Shown: one piece after another, positions 148 through 40,117 of the stretch
Layout of the letters: each line of letters begins with the position of its first letter
Numbering within the stretch: the stretch's first letter is position 1
Sequence record: NC_024125.2
DNA length: 64,000 bases
Strand: one strand, 5' to 3'
Origin: Escherichia phage vB_EcoM_112
The notes under the pieces: model-generated
The model's database searches: none
Told to the model about the DNA's origin: nothing
Seen by the model: the letters and a program-made list of their open reading frames with translations, nothing else
Position numbers and translations under genes: made by a program

Positions 148-287
148 TTCTTCTCTCTAAGTTTGGGCCGTTCCATGGCGCATGAATTGTCCATTTCTGT
201 ATTTACCCATTACCGCACTTAGGCTCGACCTTATTACAGGTTGGCGGGAATCCCTCATAGAATCATGAGGTCCAGGTTGTTCCCATA

Positions 288-761
288 TTATTTGAACGAT
301 TTAACGTACTGAATAGAACCTTTACTATTCACAAAGGCAATTTTACCATTTTTATTATACATGGTAGCAGTACGTTGATAGCCATAAGTTTGTTTACCAG
401 ATTGATAACCAACTAATGCGAAATTATCTTCACCCATTTTATTCTGTTTAGCGCGAATGCGTTCATGACCATGTACCATAAGAACCTTAGCATCACCAGT
501 TGCAATGGATCTACGAGTTTTTTCATCTTCAACTGTATTAACAAAGTCGTCAAATGAATCAAATTTAGCATGAGATTTATTATACAGTTTTCCATCTACT
601 GCATAATTATATCCTTGTACATCCATCTCAACTTCTGTACCATCATCCAGTACAGCAGTGATTTTCTGTCCTTTTTTAAATTTCAAAAGATCAGTAAAAG
701 ATTCAGCAATAATTTGAGAATTAATAGCTGCTTCAGTAATAAATTCTTGATATGTTTTCAT
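288..761 (-). CDS. internal-protein-like capsid-targeted protein (157 aa)
   Basis: N-terminus MKTYQEFITEA matches T4 internal-protein capsid targeting sequence consensus; AAGGA RBS upstream; sits downstream of e where T4 has ipII/ipIII. Confidence 0.7.
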   Translation of the reverse strand: MKTYQEFITEAAINSQIIAESFTDLLKFKKGQKITAVLDDGTEVEMDVQGYNYAVDGKLYNKSHAKFDSFDDFVNTVEDEKTRRSIATGDAKVLMVHGHERIRAKQNKMGEDNFALVGYQSGKQTYGYQRTATMYNKNGKIAFVNSKGSIQYVKSFK

Positions 762-855
762 GTGTATCCTTTAAATGTAAATATTTTAATTAATAATTTA
801 TCTCTTCAAGTAACTGTGAATATACTATCACAATTCTAGGAGAAAGTAAATAACT

Positions 856-1824
<969 letters not shown>

Positions 1825-2313: not shown

Positions 2314-2672
2314 TTAATTTTCCTACAATCACTCACAAACTCTTCCATTGATTCTTTTTCAATATAAGACATGTAGCTATTATATTCCTTTAATTGTATT
2401 TTGTAATCCTTTTTTCTTTGCCAATTTATTTTAAAATTATCATAATGAAAATATAACATGGTACCAAAGAATGAAAATAATGAAATCGCTATAGTATAAC
2501 GAAGTTCACTCCAAACCTCTGTTATAATTACTGTGCCGTCAATGTTTAAAATAAAACAGTCAATTAACAATCCAATAAGACTACCCGCAAGAGCTGCAAA
2601 TACTGATACAGCAAGAATTAATAGTGACTCAGGAAACGAATATTTGACTTTATTTAATTTTGGCTTTTGCAT
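2310..2672 (-). CDS. hypothetical membrane protein
   Basis: 120 aa ORF; hydrophobic segments LLILAVSVFAALAGSLIGLLIDCFIL and IAISLFSFFGTMLYF. Confidence 0.6.
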   Translation of the reverse strand: MQKPKLNKVKYSFPESLLILAVSVFAALAGSLIGLLIDCFILNIDGTVIITEVWSELRYTIAISLFSFFGTMLYFHYDNFKINWQRKKDYKIQLKEYNSYMSYIEKESMEEFVSDCRKIK

Positions 2673-3067
2673 CGTGATTCCTTAACAAATTTCATAATTT
2701 CATTAAATTCATACATATCTAGTTTAAGCTGGTGTTCCTTTTTAATCTTTTTACACTGAGCTTTCCAATCGCGTACACGTTTACGATAATGCCTTCCTTG
2801 ATACCAGTATCCTACCCAATTTACGGGTACTAATAAAAGTGGAACTATTAATGGAAGAATTAGCATTAACACAAGTATTTCGCCAGAATCAATATCAGTC
2901 ATAACATCTAAAACACCTCCAATAATCAATAGAATTACAAATGATATGAGTATAACAGGACCTATTAACACATCAGTAGAAATTATCTGACGCTTTAATT
3001 CATACTTCAACGGTTTACTTGGAAGGTATAGTGATGGTTTTGACATATTCTCTACATTCCTTAACAA
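2654..3067 (-). CDS. hypothetical membrane protein
   Basis: 137 aa ORF with non-ATG first codon; likelier start at ATG 3046 (MSKPSLYL); hydrophobic segments VLIGPVILISFVILLIIGGVL and ILVLMLILPLIVPLLLVPV. Confidence 0.55.
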   Translation of the reverse strand: MLRNVENMSKPSLYLPSKPLKYELKRQIISTDVLIGPVILISFVILLIIGGVLDVMTDIDSGEILVLMLILPLIVPLLLVPVNWVGYWYQGRHYRKRVRDWKAQCKKIKKEHQLKLDMYEFNEIMKFVKESRCKSQN

Positions 3068-3623
3068 ATTTTTCTAGTAATAAATCACTTTCAAAATTGG
3101 GATTTTCTACAAATTTATCAAAAAGATCATCAACAATAGTTAAGATATTCTTTTTACTAAGAATACGTTTATTTTCATGCTTCGTTTCAGAATCAACTAT
3201 AAGAGTAAAGAAATATTTCTTGCCCTGAAATTTTACAGTAGTATCAATATAAAATAAATTTGACTTTTGTAAATTACGTTTAAACCATGCGTCACTTAAA
3301 CTATAAACACCGAGATAATCAAAATCGTCGTTTAAATAACAAACTGTCCATTCAGGAGAAATGAAATCAGTAAATTCAACATCAAAATCACATGTTAATG
3401 AATAAATTGATTCAATACTGTTAATAAGTATTCCAGGACGTATTAAAGACTTTTTACCTCTAGAAAATCTTCCAGAAAGACTTTCATCAGTTTCATATGA
3501 AGAACCCCAATAATAATTACGTCCTTCTGCCATACGTTTAAGAGCATTTAGTAATTGGTCTGGAACATCAACCTGTCTTTGAAACTCTTCAAACATTGAA
3601 TTGAAATCACTTTGCATTTTCAT
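3015..3623 (-). CDS. hypothetical protein
   Basis: 202 aa ORF, same strand and operon context as neighbours. Confidence 0.6.
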   Translation of the reverse strand: MKMQSDFNSMFEEFQRQVDVPDQLLNALKRMAEGRNYYWGSSYETDESLSGRFSRGKKSLIRPGILINSIESIYSLTCDFDVEFTDFISPEWTVCYLNDDFDYLGVYSLSDAWFKRNLQKSNLFYIDTTVKFQGKKYFFTLIVDSETKHENKRILSKKNILTIVDDLFDKFVENPNFESDLLLEKFVKECREYVKTITIPSK

Positions 3624-3643
3624 TCCTATTTACTCCAAGTAAT

Positions 3644-3660
3644 AGGGGCCGAAGCCCCTT
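3644..3660 (-). repeat. GC hairpin GGGGC-CGAA-GCCCC, copy 1 of 3
   Basis: aggggccgaagcccctt; identical core at 44661..44677 and 63436..63453, all intercistronic on the minus strand. Confidence 0.7.
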
Positions 3661-3664
3661 ATCA

Positions 3665-4258
3665 TTATTTCAGAGAATTAATATATTCCTGAACATCGGC
3701 AGAGGTAGTTTCAACCCCAGAAATATTACCATTAAAGGTTTCAACTCGAGCAAGAGTATCTTCAATATCAACCTTAGTCAGCGCTGCAATTTCAACTACA
3801 TCATCGGCAGTACTAATTCCAAGGGCATTCGCTGCACGAGTTTCACGGATATATTCCAATTTAACTGCAAGTTCTTGGCGAGCATCATCCAATTCAACTA
3901 CTTTCTTAGCGATTTCAATTCGCATTTCAGCATAACCATCAGCTTTAGTAGTCAACTGCTCAGCTGTTCGACGATATAGTAAACCGAGTTTAGCATGCAT
4001 TGTTACATCTTGACCTTCGGAAAGAAGCTTGCGAATTTCACGCTCTTTTGATTCAGCCTGCTTATTCTTTTCGACAATAAGTTCACGAATACGCTTTTCT
4101 TCATTAATAGATTTAACGGAAGCAGTTTTTAGATCTTTAATCTTATCAAGTAGTTTTGCTGCTGCAGCAGTATACTGTTCTTCAACAGATAGATTTTTAG
4201 CCATAGCAGAACCAAGTTTAGTGCGAATAAACTCAACAATTTTCTTCAGTGTGTTCAT
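3665..4258 (-). CDS. hypothetical coiled-coil protein
   Basis: 197 aa, highly charged heptad-like sequence ([41 protein letters not shown]...); PspA/IM30-like architecture is a guess. Confidence 0.6.
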
Positions 4259-5209: not shown

Positions 5210-5683
5210 TTATTTGATTTGTTTAGCAGACCAAATGCGATCTTTAATAATTTTTTGGATGTCTTCAACATACTCAAGAGAGTGAGCATGTGGGTTATCT
5301 TTGAAACTATAAGCACGAGCTAACTTTTGACCTTCAGTTTTGATTACTAAAAGCTCTTTAAGGATAGCTTCATATTTGGAGATAATTCCTTTAACAATAT
5401 TTTTTTCTTGTGTAGCTTTAGGATCTGCTTTAGGAGCAGGTTTACCTGAAGCCTTTGCAAAAGCAGCGCCAGTAGCAACTAAACTTTTCCAGGCCATACT
5501 AACAGCATTCCCCGTAAATCCTTCTGCTTTCATGTCGCGAGCAAATTGGAATCGCGATTCGTCAGAAGCATCTTTATAAGAATATTTACCCGCTGCAATG
5601 GCTGCTTTTGCGACAGCTTGAATTTCGGTGCTAGATGCTTCATTTAACACCGCTTCATTTAAAAATTGAGTATATGATTTCAT
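5210..5683 (-). CDS. CTS-bearing internal-protein-like protein (157 aa)
   Basis: ATG at 5683 preceded by AGGAAATAAG; N-terminus MKSYTQFLNEA resembles the capsid targeting sequence; the 231-aa track ORF 5210..5905 runs across promoter and terminator and is rejected. Confidence 0.7.
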   Translation of the reverse strand: MKSYTQFLNEAVLNEASSTEIQAVAKAAIAAGKYSYKDASDESRFQFARDMKAEGFTGNAVSMAWKSLVATGAAFAKASGKPAPKADPKATQEKNIVKGIISKYEAILKELLVIKTEGQKLARAYSFKDNPHAHSLEYVEDIQKIIKDRIWSAKQIK

Positions 5684-5721: not shown

Positions 5722-5729
5722 TATTTATA
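5722..5729 (-). promoter_or_regulatory. T4 late-promoter motif TATAAATA (minus strand)
   Basis: plus-strand tatttata about 40 nt upstream of the ATG at 5683. Confidence 0.6.
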
Positions 5730-6074: not shown

Positions 6075-6151
<77 letters not shown>

Positions 6152-6155
6152 TAAT

Positions 6156-6821
6156 TTAAAATTTCATTTTTCGACCTTTAAACCATCCTTCTGGAATTGG
6201 GTCAGTTTTCTTAATACGTTTAGAAACTTTTTCATCTAATGAATGAATCCACATCATACCGAATTGGGAATTCTTTTCACCTTTCTGGTGATTATTTTTG
6301 GCGTGAGATTCTTTCATTTTATTAATAGTTTCAGGAGTATGGGTCTTACCCAAGAAAGATTTAGTATTTAAAAATTTCTCTCTATACTTAGGATTATCCC
6401 AAAGCTGTTTAAACCTTTCTGAACCCATTTTACGATATTTTTCTTTAAGGTCTGGGTCGTTCTCAAATCTGGTTTTAAAAGCGGCAGCTCCTTTTAAGGA
6501 AGCTTCTTTCTTTTTATCCAAATATTCTTTAGTGTTTAAATGGTCCCAACCACCTTCACCACCTAATTTCAAATTATAAACATCAGGGCGCTTTAAAAAC
6601 TCTTCAGTCACAATATTCTTTTCTAACTCAAACATAGAGGTTTTATCGTCAAAGAACTCTAATATTTCTTTAGAAAAATTTTCTATACCATACTTATCTT
6701 GGGCTCTTTTTAATAATTTACCAGAACCCATATATCCATCATCTAAATTTTCGGTAGAATGAGCGCCTATATAGATTTTATTATTAATTTTATTTGTTAT
6801 TTTATAAATGTAATGGAACAT
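6156..6821 (-). CDS. segB: GIY-YIG homing endonuclease
   Basis: 221 aa; N-terminal GIY-YIG motif (HYIYKITNKINNKIYIGAH); lies inside the tRNA cluster as T4 segB does. Confidence 0.85.
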   Translation of the reverse strand: MFHYIYKITNKINNKIYIGAHSTENLDDGYMGSGKLLKRAQDKYGIENFSKEILEFFDDKTSMFELEKNIVTEEFLKRPDVYNLKLGGEGGWDHLNTKEYLDKKKEASLKGAAAFKTRFENDPDLKEKYRKMGSERFKQLWDNPKYREKFLNTKSFLGKTHTPETINKMKESHAKNNHQKGEKNSQFGMMWIHSLDEKVSKRIKKTDPIPEGWFKGRKMKF

Positions 6822-6862
6822 AAATATCTCCTATTTCTAAGAGTATTTATGTTCCCAAAATA

Positions 6863-6934
6863 TGGCCCTGGGTGGAATTGAACCACCATCTGGCGATTAT
6901 GAGTCGCTTGCTTGAACCTTCCAGCTACAGGGCC
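6863..6934 (-). tRNA. tRNA-Ile (anticodon CAU)
   Basis: Acceptor GGCCCTG/CAGGGCC, anticodon loop CTCATAA, T-arm GGTGG-TTCAATT-CCACC; no encoded CCA. Confidence 0.7.
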
Positions 6935-6940
6935 TTGATA

Positions 6941-7013
6941 TGCTGATTGGCGGAATCGAACCGCCGACGTCCTCATTACAAGTGAGGTGCTCTACCTACT
7001 GAGCTAAATCAGC
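6941..7013 (-). tRNA. tRNA-Thr (anticodon UGU)
   Basis: Acceptor GCTGATT/AATCAGC, D-arm GCTC..GAGC, anticodon loop CTTGTAA, T-arm GGCGG-TTCGATT-CCGCC. Confidence 0.8.
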
Positions 7014-7020
7014 GAAATTA

Positions 7021-7107
7021 CGGAGGCGATAGGATTCGAACCTATGAGTCGCCGGAGCGACTGCCGGTTTTCAAGACCGGTGCATTAAACCACTCTGCCA
7101 CGCCTCC
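7021..7107 (-). tRNA. tRNA-Ser (anticodon UGA), class II
   Basis: Acceptor GGAGGCG/CGCCTCC, anticodon loop CTTGAAA, long variable arm, T-arm TAGG-TTCGAAT-CCTA. Confidence 0.8.
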
Positions 7108-7109
7108 AG

Positions 7110-7183
7110 TCTCCGCGGCAGGATTTGAACCTGCGACATTCTGCTCCCAAAGCAGACGCTCTACCAAACTGAGCTACACGAAG
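7110..7183 (-). tRNA. tRNA-Pro (anticodon UGG)
   Basis: Acceptor CTTCGTG/CGCGGAG with G-U pairs, anticodon loop TTTGGGA, T-arm GCAGG-TTCAAAT-CCTGC; only 2 nt from tRNA-Ser (Pro-Ser dimer). Confidence 0.75.
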
Positions 7184-7195
7184 TAAATTAAATTT

Positions 7196-7267
<72 letters not shown>

Positions 7268-7273
7268 AAACTT

Positions 7274-7360
7274 TGGTACGAGAAGTGGGACTCGAACCCA
7301 CAAGGAAATCATTCCGCAGCATTTTAAGTGCTGTGCCTTTACCAATTTGACCATTCTCGC
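7274..7360 (-). tRNA. tRNA-Leu (anticodon UAA), class II
   Basis: Acceptor GCGAGAA/TTCTCGT, anticodon loop CTTAAAA, long variable arm, T-arm GTGGG-TTCGAGT-CCCAC, encoded CCA. Confidence 0.8.
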
Positions 7361-7361
7361 G

Positions 7362-7434
7362 CTGGGAATAAAGGACTCGAACCTTTGCATCTAGCAGTCA
7401 AAGTGCTATGCCTTACCAACTTGGCTAATTCCCA
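7362..7434 (-). tRNA. tRNA-Gln (anticodon UUG)
   Basis: Acceptor TGGGAAT/ATTCCCA, anticodon loop CTTTGAC, T-arm AAAGG-TTCGAGT-CCTTT; 1 nt from tRNA-Leu (Gln-Leu dimer). Confidence 0.8.
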
Positions 7435-8450: not shown

Positions 8451-8684
8451 TTATTTTTTACGAAAAATTGATTTATATTTATCAGCCCATTTCTCGATGA
8501 CTTTTTCTGGTCCATAGATAACAAAATAATCACCAAACTCTTCACCACCGAGTTGACCGAAATTATCTAATGCATCACGAAGAACTCCATGAGGCATTTC
8601 GCCCATTTTATCTTTCTTGCCAATGTAAATAAACTCAACTTTTACATCAGCAGCTTCAGCAATAAATTCTTGATACATTTTCAT
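8451..8684 (-). CDS. CTS-bearing internal-protein-like protein (77 aa)
   Basis: ATG at 8684 preceded by GGAG; N-terminus MKMYQEFIAEA; track ORF extends to 8702 through a non-ATG codon. Confidence 0.65.
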   Translation of the reverse strand: MKMYQEFIAEAADVKVEFIYIGKKDKMGEMPHGVLRDALDNFGQLGGEEFGDYFVIYGPEKVIEKWADKYKSIFRKK

Positions 8685-8762: not shown

Positions 8763-9020
8763 TTATTTTAAATCTTCTAATCGTTTCTTCATCTTAGAAC
8801 CGTTCTTAGCGATTTCTCCTGCATCAGAGCATAATGCTAAAAGTGCTTTAACTTTAGTTTGGTCTCCTTTAAAAGACGAAGGATCGACTGCAGCAGCAAG
8901 TTCTTTAATACGAGAGAAAAGACGCTCAGCTTCAGCTAAAGCCATTCCAAGCTTTACTTCCATACCGTGGGAAGATTCAGTGATAGTAGTTTTTGTAGCA
9001 AACTCTTTGAAAGTTTTCAT
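8763..9020 (-). CDS. internal-protein-like protein with CTS-like N-terminus (85 aa)
   Basis: N-terminus MKTFKEFATKTTITE; RBS AGGAAAA; own upstream promoter element. Confidence 0.6.
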   Translation of the reverse strand: MKTFKEFATKTTITESSHGMEVKLGMALAEAERLFSRIKELAAAVDPSSFKGDQTKVKALLALCSDAGEIAKNGSKMKKRLEDLK

Positions 9021-38214: not shown

Positions 38215-38639
38215 TGCTTCTGATCCCTGAAACTCATGAATTAGTTCTCGAGAATGTCGAAGCACTTATTCCTGAAGCACAGGGTCGCTTTGACGAATTG
38301 TCTTCTGCTTTAAATAAAGACGATATAAATACAATTGTCGAGAATATGCTTGATGATGAAACTGATTTAGCGGTTGCATTAGCTTCTATTAATGAAAACA
38401 TGCCGTTAAATGAATTCATTGTTAAGCACGTTTCAGCTCGTGGTGAAATTACTCGCACTAAAGACCGCAAAACGCGTGAACGAAATGCATTTCAAACCAC
38501 TGGGCTGTCTAAAGCAAAACGTAGACAAATTGCTCGTAAAGCTACCAAAACGAAGATTGCCAATCCAGCAGGTCAATCTCGTGCTCAGCGTAAGCGTAAA
38601 AAAGCTCTTAAACGCCGTAAAGCATTAGGATTAAGCTAA
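38214..38639 (+). CDS. 68: prohead core protein gp68
   Basis: 141 aa, basic C-terminus. Confidence 0.8.
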
Positions 38640-39277
38640 TGAATGAACCCCAATTACTAATTGAAACTTGGGGTCAACCTGGCGAAATTATTGATGGCGT
38701 ACCAATGCTTGAATCTCATGATGGAAAAGACTTAGGTTTAAAACCGGGTTTATACATCGAAGGAATATTCATGCAAGCGGAAGTCGTCAATAGAAATAAA
38801 CGTCTTTATCCAAAACGTATATTAGAAAAAGCGGTAAAAGACTATATTAATGAGCAAGTTTTAACTAAACAAGCTCTCGGAGAATTAAATCATCCTCCAC
38901 GCGCTAATGTTGACCCGATGCAAGCCGCTATCATTATAGAAGATATGTGGTGGAAAGGAAATGACGTATACGGACGAGCTCGTGTTATTGAAGGTGACCA
39001 TGGTCCTGGAGATAAATTAGCAGCTAATATTCGTGCCGGATGGATTCCAGGAGTTTCTTCTCGTGGATTAGGTTCATTGACTGACACAAATAAAGGTTAT
39101 CGTATCGTAAACGAAGGATTCAAATTAACTGTAGGTGTTGATGCAGTATGGGGTCCAAGTGCTCCAGATGCATGGGTAACTCCTAAGGAAATTACCGAAT
39201 CACAGACGGCGGAAGCCGATACAAGTGCCGATGACGCCTATATGGCTCTCGCAGAGGCCATGAAAAAAGCGTTATAA
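38639..39277 (+). CDS. 21: prohead core protease gp21
   Basis: 212 aa. Confidence 0.9.
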   Translation: MNEPQLLIETWGQPGEIIDGVPMLESHDGKDLGLKPGLYIEGIFMQAEVVNRNKRLYPKRILEKAVKDYINEQVLTKQALGELNHPPRANVDPMQAAIIIEDMWWKGNDVYGRARVIEGDHGPGDKLAANIRAGWIPGVSSRGLGSLTDTNKGYRIVNEGFKLTVGVDAVWGPSAPDAWVTPKEITESQTAEADTSADDAYMALAEAMKKAL

Positions 39278-39307: not shown

Positions 39308-40117
39308 ATGCTTAAAGAACAACTGATTGCCGAAGCGCAGAAAATTGATGCTTCCGTTGCTCTTGATAGTATTTTCGAATCAGTTAATATTTCTCCGGAA
39401 GCAAAAGAAACTTTCGGCACTGTATTCGAAGCTACCGTCAAGCAGCACGCCGTTAAATTAGCTGAATCTCATATCGCTAAAATTGCTGAAAAAGCAGAAG
39501 AAGAAGTAGAAAAAAATAAAGAAGAAGCCGAAGAAAAAGCTGAGAAGAAAATCGCTGAGCAAGCTTCTAAATTCATTGACCATCTTGCGAAAGAATGGCT
39601 CGCTGAAAATAAATTAGCAGTTGATAAAGGTATTAAAGCCGAACTGTTTGAATCCATGCTTGGTGGATTAAAAGAGCTCTTTGTTGAACACAACGTTGTT
39701 GTTCCAGAAGAATCAGTTGATGTTGTAGCTGAAATGGAAGAAGAGCTGCAAGAACATAAAGAAGAATCAGCTCGTCTGTTCGAAGAACTCAATAAGCGTG
39801 ACGCATATATCAATTATGTGCAGCGTGAAGTGGCATTGAGCGAAAGTACTAAAGATCTGACTGAGTCTCAAAAAGAAAAAGTCTCTGCTCTGGTCGAAGG
39901 TATGGATTATTCAGATGCATTCTCAAGTAAATTGAGTGCAATCGTAGAAATGGTGAAGAAATCTAATAAAGATGAAAGCACTATTACTGAGAGTATAAAT
40001 ACTCCTGATACTGAAGCAGCCGGACTGAATTTCGTCACTGAAGCTGTAGAAGATAAAGCTGCACAAGGTGCAGAAGATATTGTAAGTGTATATGCGAAAG
40101 TCGCATCTCGTTTCTAA
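39308..40117 (+). CDS. 22: prohead scaffold protein gp22
   Basis: 269 aa, highly charged coiled-coil. Confidence 0.85.
   Translation: MLKEQLIAEAQKIDASVALDSIFESVNISPEAKETFGTVFEATVKQHAVKLAESHIAKIAEKAEEEVEKNKEEAEEKAEKKIAEQASKFIDHLAKEWLAENKLAVDKGIKAELFESMLGGLKELFVEHNVVVPEESVDVVAEMEEELQEHKEESARLFEELNKRDAYINYVQREVALSESTKDLTESQKEKVSALVEGMDYSDAFSSKLSAIVEMVKKSNKDESTITESINTPDTEAAGLNFVTEAVEDKAAQGAEDIVSVYAKVASRF

Follow-up and report, generated by a model that had tools for sequence, protein, structure and literature searches.

Directly downstream of the lysozyme gene e, where phage T4 carries the internal protein genes ipIII and ipII, Escherichia phage vB_EcoM_112 has an open reading frame (ORF) whose product opens with the leader of a T4 internal protein (IP). 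This raises the question of whether it encodes a form of IPII or IPIII, or a different cargo brought into the head by the same signal. The window analyzed here is a stretch of 64,000 nucleotides (nt) of this phage (NC_024125.2), in which the ORF occupies 288-761 on the minus strand, a strand left unstated in the original prediction, which had proposed a separate, hypervariable injected cargo. Judged by its sequence, the ORF is a genuine gene for Ip4, a T-even internal protein that has already been named and catalogued; the cargo is set apart from IPII and IPIII, as had been proposed, but it is not an undescribed one.

The Ip4 coding sequence (288..761, minus strand) comprises 157 codons from an ATG start to a TAA stop at 290-288, as defined by the ORF listing, DUF7412, PHROG 3155 and the identity to RB14 Ip4. 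The 157-amino acid (aa) product has the N-terminus MKTYQEFITEAAINSQ and starts with MKTYQEFITEA (N-terminal sequence as quoted, MKTYQEFITEAAINSQIIAES). An AAAGGA ribosome-binding site is found at 772-767, 5 nt 5′ of the ATG, and the gene starts 94 nt downstream of lysozyme gene e (856..1350, minus strand), a 164-aa ORF with a Pfam Phage_lysozyme match and 97% identity to T4 lysozyme. Pfam DUF7412 (PF24183) matched Ip4 over its full length, residues 1-157 on profile positions 1-158, with 317 bits (E 3e-95) against a curated cut-off of 27 bits, and PHROG 3155, annotated as “internal virion protein”, matched with an E value of 2.4e-101. Together with the 469 phage records in which the body of the protein was found, these full-length family matches place the ORF far beyond chance.

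The amino acid identity was 99% to RB14 Ip4, 98% to K3 Ip4 (UniProt Q38388) and, over the body only, 99.3% to the T2 protein. The orthologues of RB14, RB32 and AR1 carry the annotation “Ip4”, and that of RB14 bears the note “similar to T2, RB70 Ip4”. With 98-99% full-length identity, equal length and the same position between e and vs.8, the Ip4 proteins of K3, T2, RB70, RB14, RB32 and AR1 are the same protein as the one encoded here, which departs from the common Ip4 sequence at two positions, having V97 instead of Ala and N136 instead of Ser. Codon 97 (window 471-473) reads Val within LMVHGHE, where the family has the nearly invariant Ala. Over its first 1400 bases the window shared 99.9% identity with Escherichia phages vB_EcoM_Maryam and BCU-2, and 97-98% with RB27, RB14, RB32 and AR1, all of the genus Tequatrovirus. 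Going by the RB14 annotation note, Ip4 was reportedly named by Repoila et al. in 1994. For additional ip genes, a recent study (PMC12373910), like the annotation of RB14, points to Repoila et al. 1994.

Comparison with T4 showed how far the likeness to its internal proteins reaches. The gene order is vs.8 - denV - ipII (100 aa) - ipIII (193 aa) - e in T4 and vs.8 - Ip4 - e in the window, and the 157 residues of Ip4 fit neither T4 length, as had been noted from the ORF alone. The capsid-targeting-like leader recognized at that time was also borne out: 10 of the first 11 residues match both IPIII and IPII. Beyond the leader the resemblance stops. BLASTP aligned Ip4 with IPIII over residues 1-13 alone (10/13 identical), while the full-length alignment with IPII gave 31% identity over 77 residues and the body-only alignment was not significant (E 0.23). 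Thus Ip4 resembles IPIII in its leader, MKTYQEFI(A/T)EA, its place directly downstream of e, its 95% nucleotide identity in the upstream and leader region and its similar mild basicity, but the two bodies are unrelated; with IPII it shares a leader of identical type and the same ip locus, but again the bodies lack significant similarity. High full-length identity to either T4 protein, the finding that would have contradicted a distinct cargo, did not appear in these alignments.

The same boundary was seen at the nucleotide level. By blastn, window positions 730-1500, covering the ipIII leader codons and the upstream region through e, were 95% identical to T4, with a break at 730, and positions 1-288 were 92.6% identical to T4 vs.8 plus the sequence right after denV. 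These two alignments indicate that the Ip4 body (289-729) stands in for T4 denV, ipII and the body of ipIII, one junction of T4 homology coinciding with the last of the leader codons and the other with the stop codon. Copies of the leader codons together with their upstream region also stand before T4 ipII and before both ip genes of Shigella phage SH7, an arrangement that is expected if the leader repeat serves as a recombination site for cassette swapping. Ip4 occurs with another ip gene in SH7 and in tandem with IPII in Klebsiella phage vB_KpnM_311F.

At the 3′ cassette junction, the Ip4-vs.8 intergenic region (177..287, minus strand) is homologous to T4 sequence downstream of denV; denV itself, the T4 gene between vs.8 and ipII, is missing from the corresponding position of the window (177-288). 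The intergenic region was also considered as an RNA or regulatory element and rejected, having no Rfam match, folding no better than its shuffles (z 0.20) and showing that denV-downstream homology. In phage 311F, the gene after Ip4 (3490-3792) is IPII, differing from T4 IPII at 6 of 100 residues as counted by eye, and the lysozyme has 65% identity to that of the window, which is itself 97% T4-like. A near-T4 IPII beside a lysozyme of 65% identity suggests that the ipII cassette has recently crossed from one genus to another by horizontal transfer.

We then examined the leader in the light of the IPIII experiments, in which the first 10 residues were enough for packaging, residues 4 and 7 mattered most for targeting and residues 8 and 10 for processing, and the gp21 protease cut after Glu in L/I-X-E (PMC9026906). 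The capsid targeting sequence of Ip4, MKTYQEFITE (codons 1-10, 732..761, minus strand), retains Y4, F7, I8 and E10, and its sole difference from the IPIII leader is at position 9, the X of L/I-X-E; gp21 cleavage is predicted after E10, within I8-T9-E10. A linker follows, AAINSQIIAE (codons 11-20, 702..731, minus strand), which has a second L/I-X-E at I18-A19-E20, a possible gp21 site. E20 occurs in all 13 close family members, where the residue at −2 is I, L or M, and scanning of the whole protein found L/I-X-E at residues 8-10 and 18-20 only. The predicted N-terminus of mature Ip4 is therefore A11 or S21. The window also codes for the expected partners, the gp21 prohead protease (Peptidase_S77, Pfam E 1.5e-111; 38639..39277, plus strand) as the leader-removing enzyme and the gp22 scaffolding core protein (T4_CASP, Pfam E 1.7e-89; 39308..40117, plus strand) as the leader-binding structure, besides gp67 and Alt. 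With its leader residues, its ip locus and both gp21 and gp22 present, Ip4 has the sequence features of T4-type internal head proteins, and it is very probably packaged and processed.

The cargo itself, codons 21-157 (291..701, minus strand), is predicted to be a folded domain of 137 aa and 15.5 kDa, with a pI of 9.3 and 17 Lys. With 13 close sequences as input, AlphaFold gave a weak model (predicted local distance difference test, pLDDT, 66). A second AlphaFold2 model, for which three distant homologues were added, was confident, with a mean pLDDT of 85, a predicted template modelling score of 0.78 and block-mean pLDDT values of 81-94 in the body. In this model residues 11-20 are disordered (pLDDT <50), and residues 21-157 form a compact alpha/beta domain of a short helix, a beta hairpin, three helices and four strands. 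Of the 67 columns invariant in the 13 close family members, 59 fall within the body. Mature Ip4, with pI 9.1-9.3, 17 Lys and a net charge of +4 to +5 over 137-147 residues, resembles the processed T4 proteins IPI*, IPII* and IPIII*. The sole significant fold match in BFVD was K3 Ip4 (template modelling score 0.91), and a partial structural similarity to SH3/Sm/Tudor-like small barrels was observed.

A known activity was sought and rejected: as an enzyme or other known domain, Ip4 yielded DUF7412 alone in Pfam, sub-threshold noise only in the NCBIfam scan and nothing below E 0.5 in the PDB profile search. Similarity to an enzyme or to a known anti-defence fold was found in none of the Pfam, PDB profile, NCBIfam and fold searches, nor was any sequence or fold relationship to a known GmrSD inhibitor. 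H64 and H99 are invariant in close relatives and replaced in distant homologues, which argues against a catalytic centre.

Next, the distribution of the cargo was evaluated with tblastn using the Ip4 body alone. Among the 469 phage records obtained, 309 had at least 95% identity and belong to Tequatrovirus phages of Escherichia, Shigella, Salmonella and Yersinia, T2 included, and 159 had 60-80% identity, most of them from Jiaodavirus phages of Klebsiella and Gelderlandvirus phages of Salmonella. Where representatives of the latter two genera were inspected, Ip4 stands directly after e, abutting or overlapping it. The between-genus identity was 69-70% for Ip4, 65-67% for lysozyme e and 55% for NudE. 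The description of the protein as another hypervariable one thus held for the locus, where the presence or absence of cassettes varies, and failed for Ip4 itself, whose sequence resembles that of a vertically inherited, constrained gene. T4 lacks Ip4, which is replaced there, and T6 lacks any ip gene at the e locus; in T6 (2495-3512 of the T6 segment) regB adjoins e, and the vs.3-to-vs.8 segment and the ip gene are absent.

When 1.84 billion representative proteins were searched exhaustively with a profile, only three true distant relatives emerged, at approximately 35% identity; the remaining matches were rejected as one fragment, one copy with a frameshift and one false-positive repeat protein. 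Two of the three distant relatives carry a M-N-F-x-x-F-L-N-E-S leader. Of the three, P0017 is encoded between 57B/gene 1 and vs on a contig that bears T4-like markers, and P0016 beside a denV-like gene with a weak Pyr_excise match. As a discovery Ip4 carries little weight, being named, present in Pfam and PHROGs and carried by hundreds of sequenced phages; its interest is that a protein so widespread (469 records, three genera) combines unusual conservation with a confidently predicted fold that has no relatives.

With regard to expression, two exact T4 late-promoter motifs, TATAAATA, were found upstream of e (1364-1371 and 1377-1384, minus strand) and are the likely source of a late e-Ip4 transcript. 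The e-Ip4 intergenic leader (762..855, minus strand) holds the AAAGGA and lies inside the 730-1500 block shared with T4 ipIII; it contains no exact late-promoter motif. A promoter of Ip4's own was considered and rejected, since there was no exact late motif and only weak sigma-70-like matches at chance frequency. No terminator-like site was predicted between e and Ip4 on the minus strand, and for this reason late co-transcription with e is the simplest reading. Late expression would fit a component of the prohead core.

Taken as a whole, these features are best explained if Ip4 is a packaged, processed and injected internal protein with a probable anti-defence role, a reading that we regard as likely. 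Ip4 would be made late, probably from a transcript starting at the late promoters upstream of e, and during prohead assembly MKTYQEFITE would dock it on the gp22 scaffolding core. Cleavage by gp21 after E10, and possibly again after E20, would release a folded product of 15.5-16.5 kDa, rich in lysine and mildly basic, which, lacking any further L/I-X-E, should survive maturation. By analogy with the T4 internal proteins, up to a few hundred copies would be kept in the head with the DNA and then co-injected, and Ip4 would act in the new host ahead of phage gene expression; it would most likely be a stoichiometric protein inhibitor directed against a host defence that targets the incoming glucosyl-hydroxymethylcytosine DNA. 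The model for this probable action is T4 IPI/IPI*, a small, basic, leader-bearing and gp21-processed protein that is injected as a GmrSD inhibitor. In 2025, T4 Ip1, Ip2 and Ip3 were each reported to inhibit one specific GmrSD-type enzyme, without cross-protection (PMC12373910), and the prime candidate target of Ip4 would be a further subtype of these type IV restriction enzymes. Drawn from this analogy, the anti-defence role taken by itself has about an even chance, and a GmrSD-family enzyme as the target is a possibility that we hold to be rather unlikely.

Several observations weigh against this explanation. The searchable literature yielded nothing on Ip4 function, and no virion proteomics, cleavage or injection data for it. 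No structural neighbour of the model, solved or viral, was found except K3 Ip4, which gives no functional clue. The between-genus conservation (69-70%) is at the level of lysozyme and above that of nudE, which would be unexpected for a participant in a rapid arms race with the highly diverse GmrSD enzymes. Finally, IPIII inhibits the GmrS1/GmrSD2 system of ECOR17 and IPII the GmrSD/BrxU enzyme of ECOR21, and T2 is restricted by both of these GmrSD variants although it encodes Ip4 (PMC12373910). This indicates that the ECOR21 and ECOR17 enzymes are not Ip4 targets at native dose, assuming that the T2 stock of that study carries Ip4.

A tentative variant, which we hold to be less likely than not, is that in Tevenvirinae the ip slot next to e was ancestrally occupied by Ip4, which has been conserved there and neutralizes a host defence through a fold without solved relatives. 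That defence would be either a system other than a nuclease or a class of modification-dependent nuclease unlike the three GmrSD variants that Ip1-3 block. If so, it would be common to Escherichia, Shigella, Salmonella and Klebsiella, and the conservation of Ip4 would point to an unusually conserved target surface. As T2 is naturally Ip4-positive and T4 and T6 are Ip4-negative, the genetic screens that solved Ip2 and Ip3 are directly applicable to the Ip4 target.

Among the alternatives, the one that survives best, although unlikely, is that Ip4 is an injected effector acting on a non-restriction target, such as abortive infection, a toxin-antitoxin system, a retron or a conserved host take-over process. 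Its high conservation in Escherichia, Klebsiella and Salmonella phages suits a conserved target better than the diverse GmrSD enzymes, and the restriction of Ip4-carrying T2 by two GmrSD variants (PMC12373910) points in the same direction, as does the precedent of Alt, another injected T4 head protein, which targets host RNA polymerase (PMC9026906). However, the searches linked Ip4 to neither an enzyme nor a known anti-defence fold, and every precedent among small leader-bearing internal proteins is an inhibitor of type IV restriction (PMC12373910).

Somewhat less probable still is a mainly structural or assembly role in the head, in which Ip4 would be DNA-associated and charge neutralizing and would aid packing, ejection or core assembly, with no specific host target. 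The pI of 9.1-9.3 and the 17 Lys, of which K58, K62 and K108 are invariant even in the distant homologues, would suit such a role. So would the partial likeness to SH3/Sm/Tudor-like barrels, folds that often bind nucleic acids, and lysozyme-level conservation over three genera with a fixed place next to e suggests housekeeping. Reviews describe contacts of internal-protein lysines with DNA phosphates and an influence of IPIII on head assembly (PMC3012670; PMC9026906), which is slower in IPIII mutants. Yet the 137-147 residues carry a net charge of no more than +4 to +5, T4 and T6 do without Ip4, which makes it dispensable for the common head architecture, and all three T4 internal proteins once deemed structural now have specific anti-restriction targets (PMC12373910).

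It is very improbable that the leader is a recombination relic and Ip4 an unpackaged cytoplasmic late protein. The leader codons do belong to the repeated cassette-exchange block and could persist on that ground alone, but the functionally critical residues are kept in the homologues of 60-70% identity, and two of the three relatives at 35% identity retain them in altered form, which indicates selection on the peptide and not on the DNA alone. Least probable of all is that Ip4 is a diverged orthologue of IPII or IPIII, ruled out by the pairwise and body-only BLAST comparisons: for all the shared locus and leader and the 31% alignment with IPII, that alignment is carried by the leader, the similarity to IPIII ends at residue 13, Ip4 has its own Pfam and PHROG families and K3 Ip4 alone as BFVD match, and it coexists with IPII in 311F and with another ip gene in SH7.

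Ip4 is accompanied by other internal protein genes. At the second ip locus, next to 57B, Ip5 (8763-9020, minus strand; 85 aa, PHROG 3499) has 100% identity to T6 Ip5, and an Ip6-like gene (8451-8684, minus strand) encodes a 77-aa protein, MKMYQEFIAEAADVKVEF, close to T6 Ip6; the two take the place held by ipI in T4. The internal protein set of the phage thus comprises at least Ip4, Ip5 and Ip6, with T4 Ip1-3 all missing.

Outside the classical ip loci, another 157-aa ORF (5210-5683, minus strand; pI 9.5) starts with MKSYTQFLNEAVLNEASS, a capsid-targeting-like leader with Y4, F7, L8 and E10, followed by a second L-N-E. An exact late-promoter motif, TATAAATA, is located at 5722-5729 on the minus strand, ~40 nt upstream. 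The ORF matches PHROG 2280 (“unknown function”) and has no Pfam match; 510 phage records match it, and it is a “hypothetical protein” in all 25 of those listed. This ORF, lying between e.8 and the tRNA cluster, may encode an additional, unrecognized internal head protein. The cluster itself (6078-7434, minus strand) has eight tRNA genes, with a 221-aa ORF (6156-6821) breaking it up where T4 has segB.
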